Assembly (NCBI GenBank): GCA_964016885.1
Contig: OZ024740.1
Location: forward strand, 65,782,001-65,846,000
Length of the DNA: 64,000 nt
Direction of reading: 5' to 3'
DNA from: Eledone cirrhosa
Taxonomy: Eukaryota
In this document: positions 12,185 to 14,635 of the stretch, one piece after another
Layout of the letters: every line of letters starts with the position of its first letter
Position numbering within the stretch: the first letter of the stretch is position 1
Made by a program: the position numbers and the translations under genes
Notes under the pieces: model-generated
What the model saw: only the letters and a program-made list of their open reading frames with translations
The model's database searches: none
What the model was told of the DNA's origin: nothing

Positions 12185-12375
12185 CAACAAAGAAGGCGTT
12201 GTAAAATACCAGGAGGACCATGACGTACCAGAGTACTCGATACTTAGGGTAGTAGAGGGGGTAATAGGAAAAGATTCAGGACCCCGACGGCTGAGCTCCG
12301 GCCGCTACGACAGCTAGATCGGATCTAGATGGCGCAACGTCCGGAGCTCAGCCGTCGGGGTCCTGACATTTTTCC
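12185..12375 (-). mobile_element. Hairpin-plus-tail mini-element (family F1, divergent subfamily)
   Basis: Hairpin about 12266-12375 (CAGGACCCCGACGGCTGAGCTCCGG / CCGGAGCTCAGCCGTCGGGGTCCTG) plus a tail homologous to 8896-8976. Flanked by (TA)n. Confidence 0.8.
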
Positions 12376-12471
12376 TATATATATATGTATGTAAACAGAA
12401 ATAACAACACAATCGGTACACTATATGGAAGGTATATATTAAGTAAACGCTTGATATAGCAGGAAGAGAGT

Positions 12472-12507
12472 ATTAAAGTTTCGGACGCTAGTCCTTCATC
12501 AGAAGAA
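12472..12507 (-). ncRNA. Partial hammerhead motif
   Basis: CUGAUGA-A-GGAC(UAGC)GUCC-GAAAC is canonical, but I could not resolve stems I and III. Confidence 0.45.
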
Positions 12508-12951
12508 AGAATGAGAAATAAAATAGATTGAGGGGACGGGCGGGATGGAATTTGAAATAATGCCTTTAGATAACAATAACAGGTCCATTTATGTTGACAT
12601 CTCTTGCAAAACTGCTGGTGCTGGCGTTTTGTGTATGATTTGTTTGTTAGAAAAGAGGCTAATGGAGCGCGTCTACCAGTAATGGTAAAAAAAAACGTTT
12701 TGTAAAAAGAGCTATAATTGGACACGTGCGTCAGCATGAGTTTGTGTGTGTCTGCGCGTGTGTGTGTGTGTGTGTATGCGTGTGTGTGTGTGTATGCGTG
12801 TGTGTGTGCGTGTGTGTGTGTGTGTGTGTGTGTGTGTGTGTGTGTGTGTGTATTATAATAGGTCTGTACGAAGCTAAGAAGAAATGTGTGTGTGTATATG
12901 TCAGTAAAGGTGTGTGTGTGCATTTAAGTACGAAGCTATGAGCAAATAATA

Positions 12952-13105
12952 TTAATAATAATAAATGTGATGAAGACTAAAACCCGAAGAGGGCCCGATA
13001 AGGATAATATGTATAACATTATATAAAACCGTAGAGCAAATATTTATTAAAATAACAGATTAAAGTTTAAGCAAAGAATCGCTACTTTCACCCTGTTATT
13101 TTAAT
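12952..13105 (-). mobile_element. Hairpin-plus-tail mini-element (family F2)
   Basis: Homologous to 25045-25269 and 25970-26100. Short fold-back ATTAAAATAACAG...CTGTTATTTTAAT ends at TA repeats. Confidence 0.7.
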
Positions 13106-13176
13106 ATATATCTATATCTATCTATCTATCTAATTATATATATATATATATATATATATATATATATATATATATA

Positions 13177-13367
13177 GGAACGAGTAGGACCCCGACGGCT
13201 GAGCTCAAGCCGTTTCGACGGCTAATTCTGGACTAGATTTAGCCGTCGAAACGGCTTGAGCTCAGCCGTCGGGGTCCTACTCGTTCCTATTACCCACTCT
13301 ACTGCCCTAAGTATTGAGTACTTTGGTGCGTTATGGTCCACTTGGTTCCTTACCACATTTCCTTCGT
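13177..13367 (+). mobile_element. Hairpin-plus-tail mini-element (family F1)
   Basis: Near-perfect hairpin with ~49-bp arms at 13177-13287, an 80-nt tail, and (TA)n flanks. Confidence 0.88.
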
Positions 13368-13403
13368 TATATATATATATATATATATATATATATATAT
13401 ATA

Positions 13404-13590
13404 GGAACGAGTAGGACCCCGACGGCTGAGCTCAAGCTGTTTCGATGGCTAATTCTGGGAATTGGCCGTCGAAACGGCTTGAGCTCAGCCGTCGGGGTCC
13501 TACTCGTTCCTATTACCCACTCTACTACCCTAAGTATTGAGTGCTTTGGTGCGTTATGGTCCACCTGGTTCCTTACCACCTTTCTTTCGT
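13404..13590 (+). mobile_element. Hairpin-plus-tail mini-element (family F1)
   Basis: Adjacent copy separated only by (TA)n, with a different loop and a few substitutions. Confidence 0.88.
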
Positions 13591-14168
13591 TATATATATA
13601 TATATATATATATATATAGTGAAAGAGCTGTACAAAAAGGGTTTTAGTTACAGAATTAAGAATTGTTTCATTGATCAGGTGAGACTAGAGGCCGCTAACC
13701 ACTCGAAGTTGTGTCACTCGATCTTAAATACAGTGTGTGTCTTCGATCTTATCATCGGAATGCTGGAGGGTGTAACACATGGCATTGGTATTTATAGATA
13801 CATCGGAGAATCAAACAATAACATCAATAATAAAATATAATAAAAGATAATAATAAAGAAGTTATAAATATATACATGAGTGTTTTTTCTGATCTGACAT
13901 GGATGCCGTGTGTTTGATTGTGTTCAACATTATACCATATATATTATGAAACAATGATGAAGTTCAGTACACATGTTTTTGTTGAAAATCGATCTGTTAC
14001 GTACGCTTCCCGGCTGATTGGCTCTGCCTCCAATCATCTGTTAAACGTACATAACATTGCAATCCTCAATAAAAAAATCTATACACCCTGCCTCTTAATC
14101 AAATGCTAGTATTTGTACCACAGCCAGTAAGTAATTAATGTATATTAATGTATATTAATGTATACATA

Positions 14169-14256
14169 CATAGAGGTTGTCGCCAAAATGTATACATTCT
14201 TTAAACTTTAATCAGAGTATTGTGGAAGTGTGTATGCATTTTTGAGGACACCCTGT
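14169..14256. mobile_element. Tiny Tc1/mariner-type MITE remnant
   Basis: Imperfect ~30-bp TIRs: TAGAGGTTGTCGCCAAAATGTATACATTCTT vs the reverse complement of AAGTGTGTATGCATTTTTGAGGACACCCTGTA. TA flanks. Confidence 0.5.
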
Positions 14257-14446
14257 ATATATATAAGAAATATACATACATACACACACATACACTACAC
14301 ACACACTCCCATATAGATATATGTATGCATGTATATATATATGTATGTTTGTACGTATATATTTATATATTATGTATGTGTATATATATATATATATATA
14401 TATATATATATATATATATATATATATATATATATATATATATATA

Positions 14447-14635
14447 ACAAAGAATTGTGGTAAGGAACCAAATGTACCATAACGCACCTGAGTACTCAAT
14501 ACTTAGGGTAGTAGAGTGGGAAATAGGTAAAAGTATGACCCCGACGCCAAAGGTCAAGCCGTTTCGACGGCTATTTCTGTCCAGAAATAGCCGTCGAAAC
14601 GGCTTGAACCCTGCCGTCGGGGTCATACGTTTTTC
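14447..14635 (-). mobile_element. Hairpin-plus-tail mini-element (family F1)
   Basis: Hairpin about 14530-14635 centred on CTATTTCTG-TC-CAGAAATAG, with the F1 tail and (TA)n flanks. Confidence 0.85.

Follow-up and report, generated by a model that had tools for sequence, protein, structure and literature searches.

Insertion units of EN+ Penelope-like elements (PLEs) were described, in the available sections of Craig et al. 2021 (PMC8557442) and Arkhipova et al. 2013 (PMC3846280), as head-to-head inverted copies with a one-sided tail of 30-40 nt, accompanied by partial tandems, microsatellite targets and a hammerhead in the pLTR. The Hydra clade, which includes Hydra-1_Obim of Octopus bimaculoides, was defined by RWK, a change of DKG to DKT, CxCx5C, the absence of CCHH, CxxC and CxH (PMC8557442 section 11), and in the part of that paper covered here its listed families were 1.1-3.0 kb long, with a C-terminal GIY-YIG, (TA)n and hammerheads of C3-G8 core, Hydra-1_Obim included. 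Transcription start sites within the pLTR were given for Penelope and Chlamys-3 (PMC8557442 section 10). In PAc (Poseidon of Anolis; Frangieh et al. 2024, PMC11167929), as far as the accessible text goes, the tail is bounded by two fixed internal RT starts, which fall in the 5' portion of the following unit, and both strands of an AT-rich target are extended by the protein, which primes without target homology; cleavage products were undetected, no reads ended at the cut, and cleavage was dispensable in vitro. For the minimal hammerheads of Cercyon PLEs in Schistosoma, the accessible part of Cervera and de la Pena 2014 (PMC4209133) gave a core covariation to U3-A8 and pairs of opposite-strand motifs 100-700 bp apart that were ascribed to truncated PLEs; these hammerheads were without a stable helix III and thought to be dimeric. 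Non-LTR retrozymes are non-coding and derived from PLE pLTRs, and form tandems with a complete ribozyme in each unit, according to the consulted part of bioRxiv 10.64898/2026.07.22.740005. The available sections of the PLE literature call both the role of the hammerhead and the origin of inverted and tandem insertions unresolved (PMC8557442, PMC4209133, PMC11167929), and the family described here offers a nucleotide-level, testable answer to both questions from genome sequence alone.

The window was the whole stretch of 64,000 nucleotides from Eledone cirrhosa that was analysed. Four hairpin-plus-tail units (mini insertions) were present in it, each within (TA)n and in both orientations, and all four had been located by an earlier note on this DNA. 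The features of the family in the window were as follows.

12185..12377, minus strand: mini insertion of subfamily D, the oldest subfamily here; inverted arm, forward arm and tail; GAAA decayed; 76% identity to the long copy.
13175..13370, plus strand: mini insertion of subfamily B; inverted arm starting at 13175 and extending to -60; forward arm that begins at -54 and reaches position 0 at 13289; tail 13290-13370.
13402..13593, plus strand: mini insertion of subfamily B, inside the TA tract behind the 13175 copy; position 0 at 13512.
About 14445..14637, minus strand: mini insertion of subfamily C; arms to -58 and -55; position 0 at 14524.
7433..8979, plus strand: long insertion of subfamily A (intact ORFs in the subfamily); two longer 3'-UTR copies head to head, with 500-nt paired arms.
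8899..8979, plus strand: tail of 81 nt, bounded by two fixed start points, each ending in TAT.
8791..8899, plus strand: hammerhead motif of type I, complete and of the U3-A8 variant, with GAAA and a core that begins at 8796 (-102); cleavage is predicted after 8879 (-19), and position 0 (8898) is where the extended helix I closes.
7535, minus strand: mirror hammerhead copy within the long insertion.
8837..8842, plus strand: TTAGT(C) motif in loop II, whose A (8839, position -59) is the main stop edge of short arms.

The last paired-arm base was taken as position 0 (13289 for the second unit and 8898 for the long insertion). On this scale the tail runs from +1 to +81 and the ATG lies at +172; the hammerhead core starts at -102, and its cut is predicted between -19 and -18. 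The layout of two arms plus a tail in the earlier note held, and its sizes of about 50 bp and 80 nt were corrected to ~54-61 nt for the arms of the four minis and 81 nt for the tail. The 3' arm comprised the 3' strand of stem II, GAAA, stem III, GUC and stem I, and 3' arm plus tail were 93%, 92%, 85% and 76% identical to the hammerhead copy at 8796-8884; this bore out the claim that the arm equals the 3' half of a hammerhead, except that in the copy at 12185 GAAA had decayed in both arms. The 5' hammerhead core was absent from all four minis, as claimed. The hammerhead that had served as reference was confirmed as a motif, and it belonged to the long copy at 7433-8979, a fifth insertion of the same plan with the fixed start at position 0 and the 81-nt tail, not to a separate element. 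The copy at 13175 folded with -128 kcal/mol (z = -17.9), and none of 200 shuffles was equally stable. We infer that the 13402 unit was an event separate from the 13175 unit, because its junction differs. Additionally, copies of the element clustered inside the TA flanks of each other (L001, L013, L016, L021, L022 and L128, and 13175 and 13402 in the window), which suggests that each insertion provides fresh targets for later ones.

The mini units are almost certainly a by-product of a PLE, and the relation to a PLE pLTR that had been proposed for them was substantiated by a parent with an intact ORF. A pLTR-ORF-pLTR element, L047, was reached by searching with the upstream UTR, and the loci L093/L094 held a four-unit array with a tandem period of 3,531 bp and an open frame of 784 codons; 150 scored matches were obtained with the L047 protein, many of them in 784-codon open frames. 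A 716-aa ORF carried RWR (37), DKT (117), YRDD, CxCx5C (572), VIY...YIG, CNLC..E (670) and CKH (698). RT and GIY-YIG thus stood in one ORF, the endonuclease being without the CCHH cysteines and with one Cys between GIY and YIG, and 2,046 homologs were found, the top match with PF01541. Pfam and PDB searches of the ORF protein and the alignment gave no direct or informative match, and the identity as RT and endonuclease was drawn from motifs and homologs. Among 115 homologs, RW[KR] was retained in 110 and DK[TS] in 114, most motifs were retained in 108-114, and the GIY-YIG pattern in 75.

By these clade-defining motifs the parent was assigned as a putative Hydra-type PLE. It shared with that clade all the traits given above, DKT, RW[K/R], CxCx5C, no CCHH, CxxC/CxH, C-terminal GIY-YIG, (TA)n and the hammerhead. 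The unit of 3,531 bp exceeded the general size of the clade (<3 kb) owing to a long UTR, and intact ORFs were numerous; the ribozyme had a U3-A8 core, a long stem III and a long loop II, in contrast to the listed Hydra ribozymes. Partial tandems forming pLTRs, an inverted 5'-truncated copy and a one-sided tail were all present in the parent family, and a hammerhead motif was present in its pLTR by motif layout and predicted fold. TA followed the tail in 100 of the 102 parsed copies, the left flank having been preselected by the search pattern. Thirteen tails were counted in 40 evenly spaced 10-kb stretches, spread over 10 of them, from which ~97,000 tails genome-wide, or roughly 100,000, were extrapolated (95% range 52,000-166,000). 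With exact patterns, arm starts in TA numbered 4,940 for the A type and 7,372 for the B type, and short hairpins 11,971. Within the accessible literature this Hydra-type family was not previously listed, and the architecture itself was already known. More than 2,000 close homologs of the ORF were also seen, mostly on short contigs from ENA, Logan and JGI, and judged by these the distribution of this PLE type appears to go well beyond the 27 listed Hydra families.

Insertions of all sizes followed one plan, two head-to-head copies in (TA)n with starts at the +81 end of the tail and at 0. In kb-sized insertions one copy ended at +81 and the inverted copy at 0, as in the minis, and ~90% of sampled insertions were minimal. 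The two fixed internal starts bounding a tail in the 5' part of the next unit, the AT-rich target and the extension of both strands resembled PAc; unlike in PAc, both start points (0 and +81) ended in TAT. The explanation that we consider probable for the whole is that the minis are independent PLE insertions, in which both target strands were primed on one RNA and synthesis ran off at its 5' end. In such twin priming, the element protein would prime the two strands of a (TA)n target on a single RNA, and the TAT at both start points may pair with nicked TA repeats and so aid priming. As a rule the two cDNAs would share one RNA as template and run off where it begins, and arm ends would then correspond to RNA 5' ends, give or take a few bases lost or added as the cDNA ends are joined, whether through template jumping of the RT or through host end joining. 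The main end would be a transcription start at an initiator-like motif in loop II of the ribozyme, and an RNA begun there, being without the 5' core, would not be cut in cis; the minor end would be the 3' product of hammerhead cleavage. Gene-carrying copies may come from RNAs begun further upstream, or from circles, and the minis would be strong-stop-like dead ends. Minus-strand strong-stop DNA of LTR elements arises by internal priming near the RNA 5' end, which gives a short run-off cDNA; the minis would be alike in the run-off, and would differ in being target-primed and integrated, in arising twice in each event, and in involving neither a tRNA primer nor strand transfer.

The arm ends were determined for the 60 arm starts of type A and the 60 of type B that come first on one contig (C1); one duplicate was dropped, which left 119, and scoring was by gapped mapping. 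The inverted arm ended at or before -63 in 108 of 119, never at -64 to -102, and beyond in 11. Most ends fell in the range -52 to -63, and the peaks were -58/-59 and -62. Genome-wide, 19,728 arms reached -59 and 4,745 (24%) reached -66, part of the loss being mutation, and more than 10,000 insertions ended at this fixed point. The loop-position histogram, for which a fixed or a variable loop had been foreseen, fitted neither: the loops varied, up to an outer limit that was fixed. The edge sat at TTAGT/TCAGT in subfamilies A, B, C and D despite differing surroundings in loop II. None of 21 ORF-bearing insertions, counted by hand and not chosen for read-through, stopped at -45 to -65 on second passage in the upstream pLTR (Fisher p = 3e-17); the stop at the edge is not due to sequence alone, because these insertions cross the same sequence without stopping.

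Arm ends were probably the result of run-off at RNA 5' ends, and for the origin of the main end we lean toward a promoter, that is, transcription start. The edge motif resembles an arthropod-type initiator. G at -59, possibly cap-derived, was found in 6/14 against 9/55 (p = 0.06), a suggestive difference at most, and one confounded by the partner arm. An extra T (A in long copies) was present in 17 of 18 arms ending at -62, with T runs of up to ~20, and extra-T arms numbered 2,748 genome-wide; this base was taken as a mark of the template end. For a transcript begun at -62 the first base would be U, and Pol II rarely starts there. In one insertion (L232), the copy ran to -58, jumped onto a fragment that extends ~880 nt beyond position 0 and halted once more at -56, which fits RNAs starting near -59 and running into the ORF. 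None of 21 full-length copies ended at -59, which speaks against a promoter model in its simple form, except if the 3' priming site is cut off by the ribozyme. One RNA run (0.06 share, contigs) covered another part of the UTR and none of the edge region; the DNA contig depth in run X2 rose near the edge, and since such depth is not a copy number and the run may come from the source sample itself, it was not counted as support.

A stall linked to initiation is an unlikely competitor, in which the RNA extends upstream and the RT, held up in its first passage by ribozyme folding or by a protein bound close to the priming site, stutters, with no need for a cut or a promoter. The edge did lie in the 3' strand of the small loop II hairpin and -18 at a helix junction, and a block restricted to the first pass would also explain both the read-through of long copies and the lack of full-length -59 ends. 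However, the loop II hairpin is weak and AU-rich, whereas the GC-rich stems II and III were passed; no ends fell at -64 to -102, and the edge followed TTAGT across subfamilies with different loop II. The -18 class described below tracked the integrity of the core, and L232 stopped at -58 and then, after its jump, at -56. Less probable still, and rather improbable on the whole, is that the main end arose not by initiation but through a nuclease, or some other form of processing, acting in loop II. The cap signal was weak, one class began with U and loop II was largely unpaired, all of which would suit processing, but the initiator-like motif was kept at the edge in four subfamilies and PLE promoters are known in the pLTR.

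The hammerhead itself was called by motif layout, constrained fold and variation among copies, and Rfam at gathering threshold gave no match within the window. Its core UUGANAA was covariant as U3-A8; position 7 varied (G, T, C) among 55 long copies and subfamilies, with GAAA and GUC kept in nearly all. Long copies of subfamily B mostly had C3 opposite A8 (4 of 5 in one set, the fifth being decayed, and 4 of 6 in another). In the constrained fold, loop II was largely unpaired with a small weak AU-rich hairpin, the edge being in its 3' strand, and -18 formed the base of a GC-rich helix junction. The full helix III differed from the Cercyon hammerheads, and U3-A8 and the opposite-strand pairing of motifs were alike. 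A canonical-looking small hammerhead motif (CUGAAGA core, GAAA), unrelated to the mini family, was also met by a crude scan at 35011 on the minus strand of the window.

A pattern for very short hairpins was found at 381 loci. In the first 40 of these, both arms were at -18, the predicted cut, in 18 (four of which were scored -19 via a one-base overlap or match), both were within -16 to -19 in 23, and both within -20 to -24 in none. Most copies of this cut-site class had untemplated bases between the arms, and 3 of the 18 were blunt CCCC/GGGG joints that microhomology could make. By extrapolation, 170-220 loci ended at or within two bases of the predicted cut. The 23 comprised 19 A-type and 4 B-type cases where 40% A was expected; the class was about 7-fold commoner in A, in which U3 and A8 pair, than in B with its frequent C3/A8 mismatch (p = 4e-5), the counts coming from different patterns and B being older. 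Another 8 of the 40, ending at -29/-32, lay on a 6-bp palindrome; they were taken as microhomology joining and set aside. In our reading the cut-site copies were reverse-transcribed from the 3' fragment that hammerhead cleavage releases, the alternative being a stall where the helices meet; on that reading the class also shows that arm ends can record RNA ends. The presence of this genomic class differs from the PAc results, which weigh against the cleavage reading, since there no reads ended at the cut. Neither the fixed edge nor arm ends at the cut were found in the accessible text of PMC8557442 and PMC3846280, and a literature search with few subscription papers and without Repbase/Dfam gave no description of fixed run-off ends or cut-site insertions.

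It is possible, with the balance somewhat against it, that the ribozyme acts as a switch, the promoter in loop II making ordinary mRNA yield only minis and the ribozyme setting the ratio of dud to live insertions. Such an mRNA would begin with an uncuttable half-ribozyme beside the priming site and end at a complete ribozyme that removes the other priming site. Tandems that carry the gene would then require RNA with a start further upstream, either cut at two sites to form a circle or escaping cleavage. If so, the hairpins would be a genomic record of germ-line cleavage and possibly a source of self-silencing dsRNA.

The forward arm could be parsed in 102 of the 119 sampled copies, 17 being dropped for lack of a tail in the stretch or for a gap >48 nt. 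Among 100 short pairs, 90 distinct junctions were found, with 44 overlaps (often 1-6 nt), 19 blunt joints and 37 inserts; the 20 inserts longer than 5 nt were never recurrent, and three of the seven recurrent junction types occurred in both A and B. The minis are independent insertions and were not copied from master hairpins, because their junctions are diverse, long inserts never recur and three recurrent junctions span subfamilies. The shared plan and the distinct junctions supported one of the two suggestions of the earlier note, stereotyped 5'-truncated and inverted insertions; the other, a minimal non-autonomous derivative that propagates itself, failed on the same 90 distinct junctions and on the three recurrent ones common to two subfamilies. 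Such a self-propagating family (MITE-, SINE- or retrozyme-like), with few master hairpins transcribed and copied whole, would account for the narrow length (median 195 bp), the ~12,000 exact short hairpins in A and B, the seven recurrent junction types, and a T-run class that was only in subfamily B within the sample. It is largely refuted by the junction diversity and was judged highly improbable; moreover, the arms followed the subfamilies of the parent, long copies had the same plan, and the units were without a complete ribozyme. In several junctions (L285, L251, L263, L284, L322, L056), the inserts repeated the last 9-12 nt of the arm up to four times, which we read as reiterative copying at the template end. 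The RTs of PLEs are akin to telomerase, hence the interest of such end copying.

The two arms were compared as products of two cDNAs. The inverted arm was longer in 52 of 100 pairs (by at least 5 nt in 33), and nine forward arms stopped at 0 or inside the tail. This asymmetry argues for twin priming over fold-back self-priming, in which one cDNA snaps back and copies itself into the inverted arm. An arm copied from the tail-bearing cDNA cannot exceed it, several forward arms stop inside the tail, and the fixed stop at position 0 is left unexplained; fold-back was thus given very little weight, in spite of the head-to-head junctions, the overlaps in 44 of 100, the near-equal arms of the kb-sized L099, L101 and L102, and a related self-priming proposed for Adineta Penelopes in the accessible part of PMC3846280. 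In those three insertions the arms ended 0-16 nt from each other far inside the ORF, which is what two run-offs from a single broken RNA would give. Short arms were paired with short arms in all 100 parsed cases, 8 short arms being unparsed, and in the stretch examined none of 11 long inverted arms had a short partner. The extra-T end was common to both arms in 5 pairs, in a single arm in 6 and 2, and in neither in 95, a sharing above chance (p = 8e-5) that favours one RNA for both arms. Private variants shared by both arms numbered none in subfamily A and one in B, which gave no support to the same-RNA reading. The same RNA for both arms is not universal, because mixed long-plus-short pairs exist (L040, L050, L112, L130, L232).

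Three element classes were rejected for the units. The absence of MITE geometry was confirmed, as TIRs are not at both ends (one arm is internal to the 81-nt tail), the centre varies and the parent encodes RT, not transposase; a SINE, with its fixed 5' head of tRNA, 7SL or 5S origin and Pol III boxes, does not agree with a whole unit derived from PLE pLTR and tail, and there was no Rfam match; non-LTR retrozymes, alike in being non-coding and pLTR-derived, are tandem direct repeats with a complete type I hammerhead, in contrast to inverted pairs with half a ribozyme, the 5' core absent, and no sign of self-propagation. Trans-cleavage involving the hairpin transcript, also suggested earlier, is unlikely, since the half-ribozyme would pair with its own antisense arm. 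Such units are easily mis-annotated as MITEs or SINEs. With two fixed arm ends, the copies become a map of probable RNA 5' ends, and an arm-end histogram could map RNA ends in any PLE-rich genome.

Other repeats were observed in the window. Long inverted repeats, mostly beside TA tracts, lay at 15080-16453, 29302-30447, 41382-42618 and 61379-62199, and a crude scan of these four gave no complete hammerhead. A frameshifted RT-endonuclease relative of 37-50% identity was found at 26574-28198 (plus strand) inside inverted repeats 26122-26580 / 28792-29126, and probably represents a different PLE family built on the same plan. The ORF had additional relatives, all decayed, at 7257-4930 (minus), 37577-39928 (plus) and 33753-33565 (minus). 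Additionally, a SINE-like repeat, partly tandem, was located at 9115-9225, 41945-42229 and 45514-45901, and adjoined the element at several loci, such as L008, L010 and L028.
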